From the IMG/VR virus record IMGVR_UViG_3300033495_000700: a DNA stretch of 12,495 nt. The stretch is one strand, 5' to 3'. The notes beneath the pieces were generated by a model. The model saw only the letters and a list, made by a program, of their open reading frames with translations, was not told where the DNA came from and searched no databases. A program made the translations under genes and the position numbers. The stretch comes from a virus (lineage: Duplodnaviria; Heunggongvirae; Uroviricota; Caudoviricetes). Numbering within the stretch: the stretch's first letter is position 1; each line of letters opens with the position of its first letter. Positions 2,380 through 12,495 of this stretch are shown here, in pieces.

Positions 2380-3123
2380 TTGAGTAGACAACGCGGGGCC
2401 AAAGCCCAAATCCAAAAACGCATCACACCACATATGGTAGAAAACACAATTCCATTCAATCCAGAACCCAGGCAACGACAACGACCAATAGAACTCATAC
2501 CAAAATCACGCAATCAAGAAAATCTCATATTAAATCTACTCAACTCAGAACAATCAATTGTAGTAGCAGTTGGCCCAGCAGGTACTGGTAAAACTTACCT
2601 GGCCATGTTGGCCGCTGTAAAAGCATTTAGAACAGGCGAATGTAAACGTATCATCCTAACACGACCGGCCATTGGCGTAGAAGACGAACAGCACGGGTTC
2701 TTACCCGGGAATCTCGTTGCCAAGATGGAACCGTGGACTCGTCCCTTGCTGGATGTATTGCGTGAATACTATCGCCCACCAGAAATTGCAGCTATGATTG
2801 ACGAAGGCACTATAGAAATATCACCCTTGGCCTACATGCGTGGACGAACATTCAAACATGCATGGATCATTGCAGACGAGATGCAGAATGCCACGCCATC
2901 ACAGATGAAAATGTTGTTGAGTCGCATAGGCACTGAATCACGTATTGTGGTCACTGGGGATGTAGAACAAGCTGATCGCGCACGAGGCGAAAATGGTCTG
3001 TTAGATCTTTGTTCACGGTTAGAGCATTATCCAGTCAAAGGAATGGCTGTTTGCAGGCTAACCGGGCGAGACATACAACGCCACCCAATTATAGGGAGTG
3101 TACTTGCACTATACGACAAATAA
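2380..3123 (+). CDS. phoH: PhoH-like ATPase
   Basis: IPKSRNQ Q-motif, Walker A GPAGTGKT, LTRPAIG, GFLPG, PLAYMRGRTF, Walker B ADEMQN, TGDVEQADR, RHPII. TTG start preceded by AGGAG. Confidence 0.95.
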   Translation: MSRQRGAKAQIQKRITPHMVENTIPFNPEPRQRQRPIELIPKSRNQENLILNLLNSEQSIVVAVGPAGTGKTYLAMLAAVKAFRTGECKRIILTRPAIGVEDEQHGFLPGNLVAKMEPWTRPLLDVLREYYRPPEIAAMIDEGTIEISPLAYMRGRTFKHAWIIADEMQNATPSQMKMLLSRIGTESRIVVTGDVEQADRARGENGLLDLCSRLEHYPVKGMAVCRLTGRDIQRHPIIGSVLALYDK

Positions 3124-3129
3124 CTGATC

Positions 3130-3160
3130 CACAGTAATGGGCCCAGTGCCCATTACTGTG
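3130..3160. terminator. Perfect 13-bp hairpin between convergent genes, likely bidirectional terminator
   Basis: cacagtaatgggc-ccagt-gcccattactgtg. The right arm contains the TAA stop of the minus-strand gene. No U-tract. Confidence 0.55.
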
Positions 3161-3437
3161 TGACTGCTGGTTGTGCTTTCACACGCTCGTATCCGTTTTC
3201 TGCAAACAGTCGGTCAATGATGTTTTCATAATGCTGAATGTAGTATTCCACGATTTTGTTAAAGTCCTTGGGCACGGTTACCCCATTCATGTGAGCTTTG
3301 ACCACTTGAAGTTTTTTGAAATCTAAAATCACGTTGCAGGTTTGGAGATCTCTGGTTTTGAGATTTCGAGATACCGCAGTGGTTTCGTCAATTTTACCAT
3401 CAGATTTTTGCAAAAAGGTGATTAGAAAATATCTCAC
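3153..3437 (-). CDS. Hypothetical protein
   Basis: 94-aa ORF, GTG start, fills the space between the clamp loader and phoH. Confidence 0.7.
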   Translation of the reverse strand: MRYFLITFLQKSDGKIDETTAVSRNLKTRDLQTCNVILDFKKLQVVKAHMNGVTVPKDFNKIVEYYIQHYENIIDRLFAENGYERVKAQPAVTQ

Positions 3438-3482
3438 TTGTTTTCTTTCAGGTAAATTTTAATTGATTCAGGATATGTTGCC

Positions 3483-4187
3483 TTACTTACCAATTTGGCA
3501 CAATTCAATTATACAGGCCGAAAGATTGATTTCTTGATCTGCAACTAATGGAACATTGACCAATGCATTACGAATAATAATAATTGCTTGATCTTGCCCC
3601 TCGGGTGTGGCATTCCAAATAGATAAATTATCATACATCCAGCGGAATATTTCTTCTGCTTCCTCGGGATTTGAACTCTGACAAAGCAAGGTACGTGCTT
3701 CACGTACTTTTCCTTTTTTAAACAAGTCTACACAATCTAGTTTCCAATCACCAACTGACTTATCACTAACACCTGGCGGTTTAAGAGTACCCGATTGTGA
3801 GTTTAGTTGCACCAGATTCAAACACTTTCGTAGGTCTGGGTAGGTAGCAGATATATACAAATCCAGCACATCTAGATCAAATTCTACCCCTTCTGTGACC
3901 AAGACGGTGGCTACACGGGCTGTGAATTCTGTGTGGTCAGTCTTGGTAATATGGAAACCTTGACAACGACTGTGCAAGGGTGCAATGATTTTGTGTGGAT
4001 AGTTACAAGTCATGATGAATCGCACTGTGCCGGAATAATCTTCCATCAAGTTGCGAAGTGCAGGTTGAACTGAGTTACAGTTATGCGCAACCACTCCATT
4101 TGCCAAAACAAAGTTTTTGTTTTTTCCGGAAGTTACAACGTCGTATACCGGTTTAATGCCAAGCGATTTAATTGATTTAATCTTCAT
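3483..4187 (-). CDS. Clamp loader (gp44/RFC small-subunit-like) C-terminal part, preceded by split-intein C-fragment
   Basis: First 36 aa end in VVAHN, followed by C+1. Then QPALRNLME, RFIMTCNYPHKII, LHSRC (SRC arginine finger), YPDLRKCLN (sensor 2) and a C-terminal collar DQEINL. Confidence 0.92.
   Translation of the reverse strand: MKIKSIKSLGIKPVYDVVTSGKNKNFVLANGVVAHNCNSVQPALRNLMEDYSGTVRFIMTCNYPHKIIAPLHSRCQGFHITKTDHTEFTARVATVLVTEGVEFDLDVLDLYISATYPDLRKCLNLVQLNSQSGTLKPPGVSDKSVGDWKLDCVDLFKKGKVREARTLLCQSSNPEEAEEIFRWMYDNLSIWNATPEGQDQAIIIIRNALVNVPLVADQEINLSACIIELCQIGK
4080..4187 (-). mobile_element. Split intein C-fragment (IntC, 36 aa)
   Basis: MKIKSIKSLGIKPVYDVVTSGKNKNFVLANGVVAHN|C contains block F (VYD...NF) and block G (NG...HN plus Cys nucleophile). 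It closely resembles the layout of cyanobacterial DnaE IntC. Confidence 0.93.
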
Positions 4188-4355
4188 TTATCTTTCCATT
4201 TGTCGTTAGTTAAGTGATTTGAAATCTTTTTATTGCGAGAGGTAAGTTTATTACCTTTAATCCATCCTTCGGGCACATCTTTTGTATCAAACACAGCTAT
4301 GAGTTGCACATAGTCCGGTGACTTTATTTTTGGTCAGATAAGTGAATGCTTTCAT
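4184..4355 (-). pseudogene. Internally deleted homing endonuclease remnant
   Basis: ATG 4355 gives MKAFTYLTKNKVTGL (GIY-YIG-like start), stopping at 4287. The +1 frame gives ...VQLIAVFDTKDVPEGWIKGNKLTSRNKKISNHLTNDKWKDK*, whose TGA overlaps the IntC ATG. Confidence 0.6.
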
Positions 4356-4674
4356 TGTGGCCTTTATTAACGAAGTTGATTATATCAATATTATCTATGT
4401 TATATAACTCATTTCCGTCAATTAGTGCTTCTTGCCCATTGCTGTCAAAGAATGGATGATCTTTAGTACACACTATAGTGGTGCCATCTTCAAACTCAAT
4501 CTCGAATAATTCGGCTTCGCCAGTCATTATAATATTAGCAGAGGTAGTTTCTACCTCTTTAGTTGCAAAATTATACGCCAATACATCAAAGTCTTTGTCT
4601 TGTAATTCGGCAATAGTCTTAACTTCTATAGTACCACCGTTTACGGTAAAGATCTCTTGGACTTTACCGAAGCA
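4324..4674 (-). mobile_element. Split intein N-fragment (IntN, 116 aa)
   Basis: Starts with Cys1 (CFGKVQEIFT, block A) right after DEADYMN. Block B is IEFEDGTTIVCTKDHPFF (TxxH). No endonuclease domain; ends at TAA 4324. Confidence 0.92.
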
Positions 4675-5010
4675 GTTCATGTAGTCAGCTTCATCAATCA
4701 AGACCACCTTGAATCGGCCAAAAGGCATGGTTTGACAAAAACTGATCAGTTTGTCCACCCATTCAATCTTACGACCTTCTTTGGATCCATTTACATACAT
4801 CACATCGTACTGATCTATTCCCAGTTCGTTGATCAAGAGCTTGGCCAATGTGGTCTTGCCTGTGCCAGCTGCACCACTCAGTAATAGATGTGGAATTGTA
4901 CCGTCTCGGATCCATGATTGCACTTGTTCTCGTTGAGAATCATCCACAAACACATATCCGTCTACTGTAGTGGGCCTAAATTTCTCTACCCAAAGTTTGG
5001 CAATTGCCAT
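4324..5010 (-). CDS. Clamp loader (gp44/RFC small-subunit-like) N-terminal part (112 aa) fused to split-intein N-fragment
   Basis: LWVEKFRP (RFC box II), IPHLLLSGAAGTGKTT (Walker A), VNGS, KVVLIDEAD (Walker B). AAGGA Shine-Dalgarno site upstream. Confidence 0.93.
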   Translation of the reverse strand: MAIAKLWVEKFRPTTVDGYVFVDDSQREQVQSWIRDGTIPHLLLSGAAGTGKTTLAKLLINELGIDQYDVMYVNGSKEGRKIEWVDKLISFCQTMPFGRFKVVLIDEADYMNCFGKVQEIFTVNGGTIEVKTIAELQDKDFDVLAYNFATKEVETTSANIIMTGEAELFEIEFEDGTTIVCTKDHPFFDSNGQEALIDGNELYNIDNIDIINFVNKGHNESIHLSDQK

Positions 5011-5783
5011 ATAATTTCTTCCTTGTTTAACACTAATACTACATTATAACCTTGTTGCATACTTGATGTCAACTTTGCTTTGTTCTTTTCTTCTAAGATT
5101 AAATCTTTGCCATGTTTATTCCAGGTCCATAAAGATTTGATTTCGTATATTGTATTGTTGATGATAAAATCGCTTATGTATAATCGTTTTATAGCATTTG
5201 TGGGATCAATATACCATAGAGCTGGCCCACGCTTTACATTTAATTTGACCCATTCTATTCCATGTGTTGTTTCTAAATTTTCCAGGAAGCAATATTCAAA
5301 ACTTCCCTGGTAATTTATAGATGTGTCCTTATAGAGTATCAACGGATTCCGTTGATTATTTTGATGAGGATTATTTTTCCAATGCTCCTGCATCTTTGTT
5401 CTTATCACTGCATAAGTGCCATTTGCTTCCATAGTAGCAAGTGCTTTTGCTCTTGACGATTTTGTGATGCCTAGATCTGTTCGAGTTTGTAATGATTTAG
5501 CAGCACGTTCTTTGTGATCTTGTCGATTAGAAAATTCACTACGCTTACCCGTACATGAATTATGACTAGTAGAGCAGCAAATTTTACCATTGGAAAACTT
5601 GTATTTTGCCGTTTGATTGCACCCATACCCACAAAGCTCAGAAGTTGTTATTTCTTCTGCTTTTGGTTTTTTGTAGATGTCCCTGGGCCTATTTTTAAGT
5701 TTTTCTACAGTTACGACTGAATGCTTTTTACCCTTAAATGCCAACCCTGTTGAATTTTTAATTCCTTTGTTCCATCCGCCCAT
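4986..5783 (-). CDS. Free-standing homing-endonuclease-like protein (NUMOD3-like motif, Cys cluster, C-terminal PD-(D/E)XK nuclease)
   Basis: WNKG and FKGKKHSVVTVEKL (NUMOD3-like), CGYGC...CCSTSHNSC, and YQGSFE...YISDF...IYEIKS...KNKAK. ATG 5783 has AGGAG 6 nt upstream. The gene is AT-rich. Confidence 0.72.
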   Translation of the reverse strand: MGGWNKGIKNSTGLAFKGKKHSVVTVEKLKNRPRDIYKKPKAEEITTSELCGYGCNQTAKYKFSNGKICCSTSHNSCTGKRSEFSNRQDHKERAAKSLQTRTDLGITKSSRAKALATMEANGTYAVIRTKMQEHWKNNPHQNNQRNPLILYKDTSINYQGSFEYCFLENLETTHGIEWVKLNVKRGPALWYIDPTNAIKRLYISDFIINNTIYEIKSLWTWNKHGKDLILEEKNKAKLTSSMQQGYNVVLVLNKEEIIWQLPNFG

Positions 5784-5800
5784 AAACACTCCTGTTGAAG

Positions 5801-5806
5801 TATTTA
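5801..5806 (-). promoter_or_regulatory. T4-type late promoter core TAAATA for the endonuclease gene
   Basis: gcaTAAATActtcaacAGGAGtgtttATG. Confidence 0.6.
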
Positions 5807-5837
5807 TGCATTGACCTACTCTCTACCCATAATTTTT

Positions 5838-6116
5838 TCATTTGTATCTACTTCCTGATTGGCCTGGTTGATTTGAATTGTCACAGGCTAAGTTATGATC
5901 AGTTGCCTTTGGACAACGTTTGTTACCACAGCTGGAACACACAATAAATGTGCTCATGGTCAGTGGCCATCCGCTATCATCAGCAATCTTGCTCATACAA
6001 TTATAACACCCGCACTGAACGTTTGCAACCGTGTTTTTAAAGATACCATCAAAGGTGTCACTGAATGTTTCCGGGCTCACACTAAGTGGGCGTGGCTCAC
6101 TACCATTGTTCATCAT
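5838..6116 (-). CDS. Small Cys/His-rich, probably zinc-binding protein
   Basis: CGCYNC...CSSCGNKRCPKATDHNLAC..SNQPGQ. ATGA overlap with the upstream ORF. Confidence 0.75.
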   Translation of the reverse strand: MMNNGSEPRPLSVSPETFSDTFDGIFKNTVANVQCGCYNCMSKIADDSGWPLTMSTFIVCSSCGNKRCPKATDHNLACDNSNQPGQSGSRYK

Positions 6117-6301
6117 GTGCGCCCAAGTGGAACGTTTTTGCCAAGCTGGCGTTCGTGCGAAGATTGCTGTTGCAATTCAGCAGGCAGTGGTGGTGGAACA
6201 TAACGTTCTTTTGGTGGTTTCTTGCCAAAGATTGATTGGTGTCGATTGGCCAATTCTTCTTGATCCACTGTGGATTTTCTTGGTCTTGATCCTCTACTCA
6301 C
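6113..6301 (-). CDS. Small hypothetical protein (GSRPR...IFGKK)
   Basis: 62 aa, with ATGA overlaps at both ends. Confidence 0.65.
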   Translation of the reverse strand: MSRGSRPRKSTVDQEELANRHQSIFGKKPPKERYVPPPLPAELQQQSSHERQLGKNVPLGRT

Positions 6302-6546
6302 ACCAGTTCCTCTACAATGCCCAACACTTCGGCTGCAATCAGTAATGCTCCGCCAATCACAAGTGAACCTTGAATAAATGCAATACCTGCAAGTATTCTA
6401 AGTGCGCTTTTGGCCAGGCTTACATAAAAGTGTCCGCGGCTGGTATCTCGGGGTTGAATTTCTATCATGGGTTTCCTATTTGGGCAACGCCCTTGTTTAT
6501 AATCACAATCTGATTGAACAGAACCGTGACAAGTTTTGCATTTCAT
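6298..6546 (-). CDS. Small membrane protein with N-terminal Cys motif
   Basis: CxxC...C...C followed by hydrophobic ILAGIAFIQGSLVIGGALLIAAEVLGIV. Start overlaps the upstream stop (TAATG). Confidence 0.7.
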   Translation of the reverse strand: MKCKTCHGSVQSDCDYKQGRCPNRKPMIEIQPRDTSRGHFYVSLAKSALRILAGIAFIQGSLVIGGALLIAAEVLGIVEELV

Positions 6547-7019
6547 TATTGTGTTAGTCCACGTTCTACTTCAGCTTTGGCCACACGTCGGCGCAGACTT
6601 GAACTGGAGAAACTATGATCTCTCTTGTTGAACACTAGTTCAATGCCCCGTAGACTACCTTCGTCTCGACCAGTAAAATCTTTGTCGCAGTATTCCACAC
6701 CCAAGATACGTACATCCACCGGTAGGATCAATAACAGGTCAATGAGATCTTGTTCTGTTTGATACACCACAACCTCGTCCACATAGCGGCAAGCGGCCAA
6801 TTGTATTTGACGTTCTACTATGCTTTGTACTGGTGAATTCTTGGTATCTGGGCGATCTATTGTGGGATCAGTTTGTAGTCCAGCAATGAGATAATCACAG
6901 TGATTCTTGGCTTCACTTAACATGGCAATATGGCCAGCATGAAACATGTCAAATGCCGAAAAAACAATCCCAATTTTCTTGCCATCCTTCTTGAGCTGCT
7001 TGATGTGATTGAAAATCAA
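6546..7019 (-). CDS. Cytidylyltransferase, TagD (glycerol-3-phosphate cytidylyltransferase)-like
   Basis: FSAFDMFHAGH (HxGH), LIAGLQTDP, ACRYVDEV, GVEY, RDHSFSSSSLR. Substrate not determinable from sequence. Confidence 0.88.
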   Translation of the reverse strand: MIFNHIKQLKKDGKKIGIVFSAFDMFHAGHIAMLSEAKNHCDYLIAGLQTDPTIDRPDTKNSPVQSIVERQIQLAACRYVDEVVVYQTEQDLIDLLLILPVDVRILGVEYCDKDFTGRDEGSLRGIELVFNKRDHSFSSSSLRRRVAKAEVERGLTQ

Positions 7020-7836: not shown

Positions 7837-7842
7837 TATTTA
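7837..7842 (-). promoter_or_regulatory. T4-type late promoter core TAAATA, sharing its TAA with the stop codon of the upstream gene
   Basis: cgtTAAATAtttttAAGGAaaacattATG. Confidence 0.55.
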
Positions 7843-8358
7843 ACGCAGAAACTCTGCGATATCTAACTTGTAATGCAGGCTGTCTATTCTGTGTACCCCC
7901 AATAGATACAACACATAGCTGGCTACTGAGCTTCCACGTCCTACACCCCAAATTAGATTGTTTTGTCGCATGATATCTACTAGAAATTTGAGATATCGCA
8001 ATAGGTCAAACAAATCACGTGCTTGATACAGTAATAGTTCTTCCCCTACTCGTTGTAATGCTGCTGGTGATTGGCACAGATTTAACACATGTTCTGCAAT
8101 GTCTAAGTTCTTGTATTGATCTGGCATGAGCCAATTGCTTTGATTTCCATGATCAAATTCTTCTACTGTGATGGTCTGAAAGGCCAGTTTGTTGTATTTT
8201 ACAAACTTAGGAACATTTTCCAAAATCAACACAGACGTTTCCAAATCCACAGTGGCGTCTACCAGCATGCCATCCACTTGCATACTGTGTCCACGCATGA
8301 GCATGTTTACACAGTCGTCTTCATTGTAGATCAGTTGACCCAGATGATCAGTTCTCAT
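7840..8358 (-). CDS. dnaE: Stand-alone fragment of DNA polymerase III alpha (C-family) catalytic subunit
   Basis: RVGEELLLY...YLKFLVDIMRQNNLIWGVGRGSSVASYVLYLLGVHRIDSLHYKLDIAEFLR parallels DnaE RL..EL..I...YFLIV.D...GPGRGSAAGSLVAY.LGIT.IDP...DLLFERFL. Start set at the MRTD ATG (8358). Confidence 0.8.
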   Translation of the reverse strand: MRTDHLGQLIYNEDDCVNMLMRGHSMQVDGMLVDATVDLETSVLILENVPKFVKYNKLAFQTITVEEFDHGNQSNWLMPDQYKNLDIAEHVLNLCQSPAALQRVGEELLLYQARDLFDLLRYLKFLVDIMRQNNLIWGVGRGSSVASYVLYLLGVHRIDSLHYKLDIAEFLR

Positions 8359-8962
8359 CACTAGGAAACTTAGCAAATACCACGGTGTTGGCTGCAGAAT
8401 CAGTAACAGGTGCTGCTGTTCCGCTCCACTCAAGATCTAAATCACGCCAGGTTGGTGTACGATTCAGTTTGACCACTTGTTTTTTGTTGCCTGTGGTGGG
8501 TTTGAAATTGTTATGGTTAGGGCCAGAATCAAACCACCAACCTGGCTCATCGCACGGCCCTATACTTTCTTGATCGCTATGCAAGTACCGAACATTGTCT
8601 CCAAGATTACTTTGTATGGTTATGTCTGTTACTATCATTCGTTGTTCTAGTATTGCGTTGAGTTTGCAGTATAGCATAATACCAATCACTTGGTCAATAG
8701 GCTCTTCGGGCAATGGGGTGATATTAATACCTGCCGTGGTCAACGCCTGCATCTGCTCTTGATTATGGTGTTTGATAAACACAGTGTTGGTAAGTTCGTT
8801 ATACACAAAATGATTCAAACGTGCCAAACTGGTCACATGATCGTCTTGGTCAATAGTGTTGGTATAGATAGACAATTCGGCTGCGTAATCATTGATTTGC
8901 AGACGACCTTCAAACCATATGGCAGCACTCCAGGTCACGTCATATTCTAATCTTACGTTCAT
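8348..8962 (-). CDS. Conserved phage hypothetical protein
   Basis: 204-aa ORF with ATGA overlap to the upstream ORF and an 11-nt overlap with the downstream one. Confidence 0.75.
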   Translation of the reverse strand: MNVRLEYDVTWSAAIWFEGRLQINDYAAELSIYTNTIDQDDHVTSLARLNHFVYNELTNTVFIKHHNQEQMQALTTAGINITPLPEEPIDQVIGIMLYCKLNAILEQRMIVTDITIQSNLGDNVRYLHSDQESIGPCDEPGWWFDSGPNHNNFKPTTGNKKQVVKLNRTPTWRDLDLEWSGTAAPVTDSAANTVVFAKFPSDEN

Positions 8963-9250: not shown

Positions 9251-10144
9251 TTAGGCAAACACAGCGCCGTTGTTGCCAATGCAAAACCATTTGGAATTGG
9301 TATACATCAAGGTACAGCCAACTCCTCGACTGCTGAATGTGATAGTTCCATTCCCACTGGCTTTCCAACCTGCATTGCTGACCGTGATAACCATGTTACC
9401 AAGAGTAACATCCACAGCACTAAACACTTTGATTTGTCCTGTATATCCTGCTGCCAGGGTAGCTGCCTCTACTGCGGCAGTAGAGAAGTACGAAGTAGTT
9501 TTGGTCAAACTGGCAACGGCACCGGCAGCTAGGTCTTCCGAACTGGGCAGATAAATTGGATCCTGGTTCTGACTGAGATCAAATACTGAAATAGACGCAA
9601 CCACAGCACCACCAGTGCTGCTAGTGAAATCGTATGTGTATGTTCCTGTCTGATTATAAGTGATCACTCCGGCGGCATAGCCTTGTAGATTACTGGTGCC
9701 CACGCTAACAGTATTGGGCAATGTAACTGTATAACCAACATTAGTCACTGTGATTGCCACACGAACTATACCAAAATTACCAGCAGCTGGAAAATTGGCA
9801 AATGCCAACGATATTGATCCACTGGTGGTCACAGTTTGATAGTGACCGTCAACATAGTTAATGGTCACTGTGCCTGATAGAGTGCCTAGATCAGCTGCTA
9901 CTGCACTGAAATCAGAAATATTGGCATTACTCAATGGGCTACCGGCCATGTCGTTGTCCAATACAGTGCCGTTTAAGGCTGCTTTGAGCACTGCGTTGGT
10001 TTGAAGGTCAGTGATCTCGTTGGCTGCATACTGAAAGTTAGTTTTGGTATTGGTGAAGTTATCACGAAAACCTTGACTGTTGTTGTCTTGTCCGGCCACT
10101 GGATAGGTGCCGTCGATGTCGTTTGGGTTAATTGCACTGGTCAT
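9251..10144 (-). CDS. Virion structural protein (baseplate or tail associated)
   Basis: N-terminus MTSAINPNDIDGTYPVAGQDNNSQGFRDNF followed by a short coiled segment, then Thr/Gly/Ser/Ala-rich beta-type domains. Follows a large structural gene; AGGA Shine-Dalgarno site. Confidence 0.7.
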   Translation of the reverse strand: MTSAINPNDIDGTYPVAGQDNNSQGFRDNFTNTKTNFQYAANEITDLQTNAVLKAALNGTVLDNDMAGSPLSNANISDFSAVAADLGTLSGTVTINYVDGHYQTVTTSGSISLAFANFPAAGNFGIVRVAITVTNVGYTVTLPNTVSVGTSNLQGYAAGVITYNQTGTYTYDFTSSTGGAVVASISVFDLSQNQDPIYLPSSEDLAAGAVASLTKTTSYFSTAAVEAATLAAGYTGQIKVFSAVDVTLGNMVITVSNAGWKASGNGTITFSSRGVGCTLMYTNSKWFCIGNNGAVFA

Positions 10145-10153
10145 ATGTTTGTC

Positions 10154-12495
10154 CTACACTAAAATGTTCCTACGGGGAAATACTAGATATTTATCGAATG
10201 CATCTGTGTTGGTATAGATATCTACAGGTGCTTCGAATCGCATACTAGTGTCGTCAAATGTTGTGGCAGTTCCGGATCCAATCACAAGATCAAACTGGGC
10301 ACCTGTACCTGTTCCTATTATGTTGGTACCAGATATATTGTTGAATGCTATATTCAAAGCCCAGACGTTATATGTACCTGCTCCCACTGTGGTTGTGACT
10401 GTCACAACCAAATTACCAGTTATTGCAGAGTAAGAAGTAACTACTCCAAACATGTAATTAGATTGGTCGTACACAATACTTATGTACTGCCCTGGATTGT
10501 AAGATAATCCTGGACTTATATTTAAAGTCTTAGAACCGTTGCCAATGGTCAAATTGGTAATGCTAACTGTACTATATTGTACTAATAACAAGGCAGTACC
10601 TGTATAATTTACTAGGGTTATTGCGCCAGTTGTGGTGTTTATATCTTGAACCGTAATAATTACATCATTTAACACATCTGTGCCACCTAAATTGCTGCCC
10701 AATATCCGTATCTTATCATTAATATTATATCCAGTTCCGCCCACTGCAATTGATGTAATCACATAATGCAGTACCAAATCAAATGTAGTTTCAGCACCTG
10801 GGGGTGTCCATGCACCGTGGGTGGAGTCCGCAATTGGATCCCAATGGATACTGAGCAGTCTATCTAGCTCGTAACGATCAACTTCAAAATCCACCAGGTT
10901 AAGTTGTTGACCAAACTGAGTTCTTATATTATATGCAATTTGTCCCGAAGCTCCTGGATTGCAATAGGCTATGACCCAAGCTGGAGTGAATCCTAATACT
11001 TTTCCATCTGCTTGCTTGCTCAACATCCATAACGGCAATAAGTTTGAAATTTGTCCAACCACATCAATCACTTGATTACGCATGTTGTCCAAGCTGTTGG
11101 GATACACGGTGGTAATCTCTGTGCTGTCACCGGCATTGATTGGGTAAGGTAGTGTGACTTGTTTACTCACGCTGATACCTGAATTATTAACTAAATTATC
11201 TTGTATAGCACTATAGACCACTTCATAAATCACATCGCCAGTTGTGGGATCTATGGCTTGAGCTGTTTTAATTTCGCCCAGTATTAAATTTTTCCAGTAA
11301 TGATTTTCAATCAAACTACTGATATACAGTTCAACTGTTGAACTGGTGAGCCCAAAGCAATGGTCATAAATTACCGAAGTTGCCACACCAAAGTTGGGAT
11401 CTTGAGATCTAAATATCTTGTCCGGTGGAAATATGTCTGAATCCTGAATCAAACTGCTGATCAATGCACGAGTTGAAATTGGTGGCATTGCTTTGATATA
11501 GAGATTTTCGTATGGCTCGTTGTACACCCGTAAAACTTTTACTGTGAATGTTTTGTATACTGATATTTGTCCGTCTGAAGAAAATGCATTTGCTGTGAAT
11601 GTGAATTGACTATCAAATGTGGTCTCCTGTGGAGATTGAATCAAACTGGTGCGTAATTCTTGATCAAAAGTAGTAGTTCCCAGATCCAACGCAAACGTAT
11701 TAAAACTCACTCGGCCGGCAATTTCTCCCGACGGCAACAACGATAATCCCTGTGGTAACTTATTATAAAATCCTGGCACATAATCAGTAGGAGGAATTGC
11801 ACCCGGGCGTAGTCGATACTCTAATGCACGCCCGCCGGTGTTAACAGCTTGAACTTGTAATAAACTAGTTGATCCATTGACGATGCTGCCAAGATCTGAA
11901 TCTGTGAGCCATATTACTTGTGTTTCCACTTGGCCAGTCACAGTCACACTGAAATAGTATGGATCTGAGTGTATCACTGGGTCAGCAGTATCTATCAGAT
12001 AGATAGCAAAGTTATATGTGATTTCGGTAATGCCCAAGTCTGGAAGATATCCATACAACCATCCAGTGAATGGATCAAGTGTGGTACCTGGCGGTAATTG
12101 TAATCCAGCGCCGGGATATTCCAAGTATTCAATTATGTAAGGACCAAATGTTAATCCTTTGAATTGATATGCCCAGAAGTTGTCTGCACGAATTACACCA
12201 AGATCGCTTGGTGCGGCATTGGTCAAGAATGGCGAATAATTTGGAGTCTGTGATGCATCAACAAAAGTGTCATCTGCTGTGATATCTGTAGTAGATGATT
12301 GTAGAGTGGTTCTACTGTAAACATAAATTTGATAATTTCTCAAATCACTGCTTTTGCCATCAGACAAACGTAATGTGAATTGATAATTGGTATTGGGACT
12401 TTGTCTCACAAAGTCAAACGGAAACATATCAAAATTTTGTCCAAGTCTATCAAATCCGCCAGTCTCGTTAATGGGATTGACCGGAATAATATATC
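10154..12495 (-). CDS. Large virion protein with putative Ig-like (He_PIG-type) repeats, baseplate-wedge-like; partial, starts beyond the right edge
   Basis: The frame stays open from ATG 12427 to the window edge (...YIIPVNPINETGGFDRLGQNFDM). Ig-type repeats LPPGTTLDPFTGWLYGY and LPQGLSLLPSGEIAGRV. The TTFD motif occurs four times. Confidence 0.75.
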   Translation of the reverse strand, partial: YIIPVNPINETGGFDRLGQNFDMFPFDFVRQSPNTNYQFTLRLSDGKSSDLRNYQIYVYSRTTLQSSTTDITADDTFVDASQTPNYSPFLTNAAPSDLGVIRADNFWAYQFKGLTFGPYIIEYLEYPGAGLQLPPGTTLDPFTGWLYGYLPDLGITEITYNFAIYLIDTADPVIHSDPYYFSVTVTGQVETQVIWLTDSDLGSIVNGSTSLLQVQAVNTGGRALEYRLRPGAIPPTDYVPGFYNKLPQGLSLLPSGEIAGRVSFNTFALDLGTTTFDQELRTSLIQSPQETTFDSQFTFTANAFSSDGQISVYKTFTVKVLRVYNEPYENLYIKAMPPISTRALISSLIQDSDIFPPDKIFRSQDPNFGVATSVIYDHCFGLTSSTVELYISSLIENHYWKNLILGEIKTAQAIDPTTGDVIYEVVYSAIQDNLVNNSGISVSKQVTLPYPINAGDSTEITTVYPNSLDNMRNQVIDVVGQISNLLPLWMLSKQADGKVLGFTPAWVIAYCNPGASGQIAYNIRTQFGQQLNLVDFEVDRYELDRLLSIHWDPIADSTHGAWTPPGAETTFDLVLHYVITSIAVGGTGYNINDKIRILGSNLGGTDVLNDVIITVQDINTTTGAITLVNYTGTALLLVQYSTVSITNLTIGNGSKTLNISPGLSYNPGQYISIVYDQSNYMFGVVTSYSAITGNLVVTVTTTVGAGTYNVWALNIAFNNISGTNIIGTGTGAQFDLVIGSGTATTFDDTSMRFEAPVDIYTNTDAFDKYLVFPRRNILV

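Follow-up and report, generated by a model that had tools for sequence, protein, structure and literature searches.

The DNA analyzed here is a window of 12,495 nucleotides (nt), which corresponds to positions 64001-76495 of an IMG/VR viral contig of 76.5 kb (IMGVR_UViG_3300033495_000700; CheckV completeness 22%). A first-pass annotation of this sequence had proposed that a phage clamp-loader gene at positions 3483-5010 is fractured by a naturally split intein, and upon re-reading the open reading frames (ORFs) of this region, all of the proposed coordinates, boundaries, and motifs were found to be as originally described. ORF 5010-4324 on the minus strand encodes a 228-amino acid (aa) protein (P0001) consisting of 112 aa of clamp loader followed by a 116-aa N-terminal intein half (IntN), and ORF 4187-3483 on the same strand encodes a 234-aa protein (P0002) consisting of a 36-aa C-terminal intein half (IntC) followed by 198 aa of clamp loader in total, beginning with the Cys+1 residue. 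The features of the locus are as follows, with identities given relative to two related contigs, L004 and L007:

5043-5072, minus strand: promoter-like site of the sigma-70 type, TTGACA-18-TATAAT, 12/12 (a consensus match only)
4675-5010, minus strand: N-extein, covering residues 1-112 of the clamp loader; Walker A is GAAGTGKT, Walker B is IDEAD, and the last residues are YMN
4324-4674, minus strand: IntN, 116 aa plus stop codon, starting with CFGK, with Cys1 (block A) and TKDH (block B)
4287-4355, minus strand: putative endonuclease 5' stub, which overlaps the tail of IntN in a different frame; 90% nt identity to the beginning of the intact L004/L007 gene
4188-4323, minus strand: gap of 136 nt between the halves, containing the deletion junction and most of the endonuclease 3' remnant
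4184-4309, minus strand: putative endonuclease 3' remnant, 41 codons (PEGWIKG...NKKIS), 90% nt identity to L004 5457-5579
4080-4187, minus strand: IntC, 36 aa, with block F (VYDV) and block G (VVAHN)
3483-4079, minus strand: C-extein, from Cys+1 to the stop codon, with sensor 1 (TCN), the SRC arginine finger (HSRCQGF), and the lid and collar domains

Across the two halves, the AAA+ core motif set of a gp44/replication factor C (RFC)-type clamp-loader ATPase is complete. When compared with the phage clamp-loader profile phrog_168, P0001 residues 5-112 aligned with profile positions 9-113 (E 7e-33) and P0002 residues 38-229 aligned with positions 114-307 (E 1e-35), and since these two ranges adjoin, the exteins meet without loss or overlap. 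Both halves also matched the RFC small subunit model NF001679 (E 5e-20 for the N-half and 1e-20 for the C-half), in each case under its whole-protein cut-off because each half is only part of the protein. The predicted spliced product of 310 aa is near the usual clamp-loader size, as had been suggested; an uninterrupted homologue (P0011) has 309 aa and matches both archaeal RFC-S (1iqp, E 1e-32) and T4 gp44 (3u5z, E 6e-25). No second clamp-loader large-subunit gene was found in the 76.5-kb contig.

The intein begins directly after the extein sequence IDEADYMN with Cys1 (Cys113 of P0001), and its TKDH motif occupies intein residues 70-73. At the other end, IntC finishes with AHN immediately before Cys37 of P0002, which is the Cys+1 of CNSVQPALRN. 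A stop codon ends IntN and an in-frame TAA lies directly 5' of the IntC ATG, and thus the two halves are encoded as separate ORFs. Both halves pass the NCBIfam cut-offs for inteins, with 33.0 bits against a cut-off of 24.5 for TIGR01445 (intein N-terminal) and 22.0 bits against 15.6 for TIGR01443 (intein C-terminal). The opposing charges reported in the first-pass annotation were exact on recount: IntN has 23 D/E versus 7 K (net -16), and IntC has 6 K versus 1 D (net +5). A lower guanine-cytosine (GC) content of the intein relative to the exteins had also been reported, as 28% versus 48%. Here the direction is real, while the size was overstated, as these two values are the extremes of single 60-nt lines. 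The actual GC contents are 35.3% for IntN, 36.0% for the gap, and 36.1% for IntC, compared to 43.8% and 41.0% for the exteins; as a whole, the element has 35.5% GC versus a contig mean of 43.1% (standard deviation 3.5% in windows of the same size), so that it ranks among the lowest 2% of such windows. The HINT fold of IntN comprises residues 1-94 only, leaving residues 95-116 as a 22-aa tail without a counterpart in contiguous relatives, and this tail appears relaxed in a more distant comparison of nonsynonymous and synonymous substitution rates (dN/dS).

The split clamp loader is not confined to the window, as six further N-half clusters with 61-78% identity were found together with their C-halves. 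In the aligned set, IntN is 52-84% identical to that of the window and the first 60 residues of the C-half are 83-92% identical, and the catalytic positions are invariant in all 7 N-halves (Cys1 and TKDH) and all 4 C-halves (the terminal His-Asn and Cys+1). For the IntN core, dN/dS was 0.17 in comparison with L004 and 0.07 in comparison with L002, and for IntC it was 0.05-0.06, which indicates that the intein is under purifying selection. A tree of the IntN cores yielded two strongly supported clades, CF(G/A)xxQ and CL(E/D)ENE, but did not order the cis and split forms, and so does not speak to whether the splitting occurred once; it should be noted that some of the short rows scored as split in this tree may be ORFs ending at contig ends. 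The first-pass proposal of a split intein in a clamp-loader gene held in every test at the sequence level, and we consider it very likely that the locus is a 'fractured gene' of the gp44/RFC type, in which a naturally split class 1 intein acts by trans-splicing and an associated endonuclease was later deleted.

The best-surviving alternative, which we nonetheless regard as quite improbable, is that the two intein halves serve as a non-splicing dimerization module, holding the clamp-loader pieces together with no peptide bond being formed. Such a role has previously been suggested for the fragmented NrdA of phage Aeh1, as well as for certain relic split inteins. Association is what a structural model of the IntN and IntC complex supports: the model yielded an ipSAE of 0.63 versus 0.01 for the best control, and 58 of the 80 solved complexes and 2 of the 110 mismatched pairs attain this mark. 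The separate runs agreed in at least 94% of contacts, the partner pLDDT (predicted local distance difference test) was at least 60, and the predicted interface involves IntN residues 1-94 and IntC residues 1-37. This is an in silico result that may reflect likeness to solved split inteins; since solved split-intein complexes exist, it shows similarity to those rather than proof of binding by this particular pair. Several observations argue against a purely structural role. The residues required solely for chemistry (Cys1, the block B Thr and His, the terminal Asn, and Cys+1) are invariant down to 52% IntN identity, and Cys+1 is kept only alongside the intein, as the +1 residue of intein-free alleles is K or P. 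In addition, the break falls between Walker B and sensor 1 in the ATPase core, where a 152-aa insert is unlikely to be tolerated.

Splicing in trans remains the preferred explanation, and the sequence between the halves suggests how the split arose. In relatives L002-L007, a 309-323-aa ORF is located between the same two halves in a different frame and overlaps both neighbors, beginning ~30-45 nt inside the IntN ORF end (32 nt in L004). These intact ORFs match phrog_314 'homing endonuclease' (E 5e-14) and phrog_5123 (GIY-YIG; E 2e-3), and reach 18.9-21.7 bits with SegE_GIY-YIG (PF19835), which is below its cut-off of 25. The free-standing gene is present in L002-L007 and not in the window, which has its two ends only. 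The 5' stub forms a 22-codon ORF that retains ~14 codons of the GIY-YIG N-terminus (MKAFTYLTKNKVTG) before running out of frame to a stop codon, and it stops short of the second GIY-YIG motif. The stop codon of the 3' remnant overlaps the IntC start codon (ATGA), as it does in the relatives with an intact gene. When the window is aligned with L004, nt identity is 90% on either side of ~758 nt that are missing from the window, and the deletion junction lies at ~4312-4322, with microhomology around CCGGAC. Because the number of deleted nt is not divisible by three, the two remnants sit in different frames, and the gap also carries stops in every frame that would join the halves. Judged from this alignment, the gap is the remnant of a putative GIY-YIG-type homing endonuclease gene, the core of which was lost by deletion at the microhomology. 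Dassa et al. 2009 (PMC2677866) described a hairpin 5' of their endonuclease genes. RNA folding of the gap in the window produced nothing better than shuffled sequence (z 0.43), and thus a hairpin of this type is not evident.

Comparison with relatives also bears on the origin of the intein. The intein-free allele P0011 belongs to a syntenic relative (L030), in which the N-extein has 96% protein identity to that of the window and the flanks have 90-93% nt identity. Identity to this allele falls to 0.67-0.72 within ~15 codons of the insertion site. In comparison with L004 and L007, the exteins have 50-75% nt identity, whereas the intein and endonuclease flanks have 83-97%, with the high identity dropping ~10 codons beyond the C-terminal junction. 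High intein identity next to low extein identity, together with the dip near the insertion site, argues that the intein element moved laterally with co-conversion of short flanks. As a separate observation, the last third of the C-extein (3483-3870, minus strand) has 50-60% nt identity to L030, while the flanking genes have 90-93%; this segment is unlike L004 and L007 too, and such a mosaic is not accounted for by a short co-conversion tract. Contiguous mini-inteins also occupy the same site in uncultured T4-like phages, namely P0147 (447 aa), P0181 (464 aa), and P0137 (460 aa, GCA_020049755.1). They share the insertion point of the window (DE.DYLN|C ... HN|C(N/T)STQPALR), and P0147 has 40% identity to IntN and 68% identity to IntC. 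Unlike the window, these are single polypeptides with ~3 residues at the position of the break, and they are unpublished database sequences. More broadly, numerous clamp-loader inteins, in cis as well as in split form, are present in the sequence databases; they occupy not only this site but others too, including the P-loop, the position directly after the Walker B Asp-Glu, and sensor 1. A blastn search of window positions 3000-6000 against the GenBank phage collection gave no match, and a tblastn search of the same collection with IntN returned just two distant inteins, which interrupt different genes in phages of Campylobacter and Listeria; thus, no cultured phage in this collection carries the element. 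Likewise, an IMG/VR scan with the IntN alignment found distant inteins only, which aligned with portions of the query at 28-55% identity. P0142 (306 aa, not in the window) looks like the middle piece of a three-part clamp loader, as it begins with a P-loop intein C-half (HHN|TT) and ends with an IntN at DE.DYLT|C, the site used in the window. On the same contig and outside of the window, positions 31444-32091 (minus strand) contain a second intein match (PF14890, 64 bits) with internal stops.

From these results, the following series of events can be proposed. A class 1 mini-intein would have inserted at IDEADYMN|C, seven residues past the Walker B Asp-Glu, after which a free-standing GIY-YIG-type homing endonuclease gene would have cut the intein in two at the usual endonuclease-insertion loop. 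The ~758-nt deletion would then have destroyed the endonuclease gene, leaving the split behind. At present, the halves are probably co-transcribed and translated separately: the sigma-70-like site is located 33 nt 5' of the N-half start codon, within the 3' end of an upstream 267-aa ORF, no terminator-like site was seen between the N-half and C-half, and the promoter-like site at 5072-5043 probably drives both. The acidic IntN and basic IntC would associate electrostatically and fold into a HINT domain, in which Cys1, TKDH, the block F Asp, the terminal His-Asn, and Cys+1 may perform standard trans-splicing to yield the 310-aa clamp loader with the junction YMN-C-NSV.

The degraded endonuclease gene in the gap and the low completeness of the contig might instead suggest a decaying pseudogene, in which a mobile element inactivated the clamp loader and the phage uses another copy or that of the host. 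We find this highly improbable, since the open frames of the two halves run their full length, selection on the exteins is strongly purifying (dN/dS ~0.07-0.10 in the comparisons that allowed an estimate of dS), the same split is retained in lineages 20-40% apart in protein sequence, and decay is limited to the endonuclease gene. The notion that the gap is an assembly or sequencing artifact of a contiguous intein with an in-frame endonuclease domain, which had been raised in the first-pass annotation and is favored by the origin of the sequence from a metagenome assembly, is scarcely credible, since the 1528-nt stretch is base-identical across contigs of two Joint Genome Institute (JGI) samples and two independently assembled SRA runs, the endonuclease gene of the relatives is free-standing, with a start and a stop codon of its own in a different frame, and the gap shows a defined deletion junction in addition to stops in each frame that would connect the halves. 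The identical contigs are L019, L020, and L021 (another JGI sample and two SRA runs assembled by Logan), and a further contig covering 860 nt of the stretch is identical as well, which, together with the recurrence of the split in relatives, removes this objection as far as it is testable.

A few observations do weigh against a functional split intein. Neither half on its own attains the gathering score of 35.8 for the Pfam intein model PF14890, with scores of 32.1 and 16.1 bits, and the candidate ribosome-binding site of the C-half (GGAAAG, 6 nt 5' of the ATG) is moderate by eye. The 22-aa IntN tail could alter solubility or the rate of splicing, and with only 22% of the genome present in the contig, a second intact clamp-loader gene could be located elsewhere.

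Fractured phage genes containing split inteins are already known, as had been stated in the initial annotation. Dassa et al. 2009 (PMC2677866) described such 'fractured genes' at the gp41-1 to gp41-8, NrdJ-1, NrdA-2, IMPDH-1, DnaE, ligase, and terminase loci, and the arrangement examined here is the one that they described: a conserved phage DNA-metabolism gene is broken by an intein split at the endonuclease-insertion loop, a putative GIY-YIG-type endonuclease gene stands free between the two halves in the relatives of the window, the 3' end of this gene overlaps the IntC start codon, and endonuclease loss is a later step. This loss is step III of their model, seen at their locus gp41-7, and the window matches the same step. 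The locus differs from their set in three respects. The host gene is a clamp loader, which is not among their enzyme types; the loss of the endonuclease can be traced here through its two surviving ends and the mapped position of the deletion junction; and intein-free, cis, split with endonuclease, and split without endonuclease alleles are all available in a single gene family. Contiguous inteins in clamp loaders were described by Novikova et al. 2016 (PMC4760082), both in cyanobacterial DnaX (PolIII gamma), where the intein immediately follows Walker B, and at sites a-d of archaeal RFC-S. Like these, the intein in the window lies inside the AAA+ core of a clamp-loader ATPase near Walker B; unlike these contiguous, cellular inteins, it is split and phage-borne, and its site is DEADYMN|C, seven residues past the Walker B Asp-Glu.

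Among solved structures (phmmer against the PDB), the nearest relatives of IntN are NrdJ-1 (8ubs, E 1.7e-6) and Npu DnaE (E 2.4e-5), and the nearest relative of IntC is Ssp DnaE (E 1.5e-3), with the Spl DnaX mini-intein among the weak IntC matches and DnaB inteins also represented among the PDB matches. The cyanobacterial DnaE split-intein structures used for comparison (Npu and Ssp) were PDB 4qfq, 5ol5, and 1zde. Like the NrdJ-1 and DnaE split inteins, the pair in the window has the Cys1 and Cys+1 of class 1 chemistry, is split at the same position, and possesses an IntC of 35-36 aa, whereas its host protein and insertion site are different and its IntN has the 22-aa extra tail. Because the matches to NrdJ-1 and DnaE are weak to moderate, the pair of the window is distinct.

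The neighboring genes are compatible with a large tailed phage and include PhoH, a GroES-like protein, virion proteins, and a stand-alone DnaE-like fragment. The 267-aa ORF upstream of the clamp loader had no PHROGs match and only a weak Pfam match to DUF7487, and the 94-aa ORF downstream matched nothing in either library. As a consequence, neither a gp62-like small subunit nor a clamp could be identified beside the clamp-loader gene. Between the GroES-like gene and the clamp loader is a group of minus strand genes (4986-5789, 5838-6116, 6298-6546, and 6546-7019), which consists of the DUF7487-like 267-aa ORF, a cytidylyltransferase-like 157-aa ORF, and two small ORFs; this group is shared with L030 and is not in L004, L007, or L002. 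The DnaE-like fragment is a stand-alone 197-aa ORF (7840-8433, minus strand) with a short match to the nucleoside triphosphatase domain of DNA polymerase III alpha only (PF07733, 31 bits; phrog_11127, E 1e-40), and counterparts of 164-190 aa occupy the same position in relatives. L030 additionally contains a 486-aa radical SAM gene (L030 4214-5674) between a 96-aa ORF and PhoH, which is lacking at the corresponding position of the window (3124-3152). Lastly, a 757-aa ORF (10154-12427) and a 297-aa ORF (9251-10144), both on the minus strand, have no PHROG or Pfam match, and positional counterparts of the 757-aa ORF in relatives show weak He_PIG matches.

The first-pass annotation was not aware of a described split intein in a clamp loader, and our search of the open-access literature likewise found no description of one in a clamp loader, gp44, or replication factor C. 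The locus is a real new example of the known fractured-gene arrangement and not a new kind of system, and it leaves the understanding of split inteins unchanged. For protein engineering, it offers one complete IntN/IntC pair with weak-to-moderate matches to characterized split inteins and with natural cis and split relatives. A broader reading, which we consider unlikely, is that the DEADYxN|C site provides a natural series for cis-to-trans reconstruction, a fast orthogonal pair, and possibly a redox-dependent replisome. If true, the series would extend from intein-free through contiguous mini-intein, split with live endonuclease, and split with dead endonuclease to possibly a three-piece gene, and could let experiments retrace the path from a cis-intein to a pair that splices efficiently in trans. 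The compact endonuclease-free pair would then splice rapidly and show orthogonality to the DnaE, gp41-1, and NrdJ-1 inteins, and Cys1 together with Cys+1 might tie phage replisome assembly to the redox state of the host. For the phages themselves, the clamp loader joins the replication genes in which fracture by a split intein is known, and the locus documents, at the level of single bases, one step in the published model of gene breaking: the nuclease gene that caused the break is lost, whereas the split has to stay, because only a precise removal would restore the gene.

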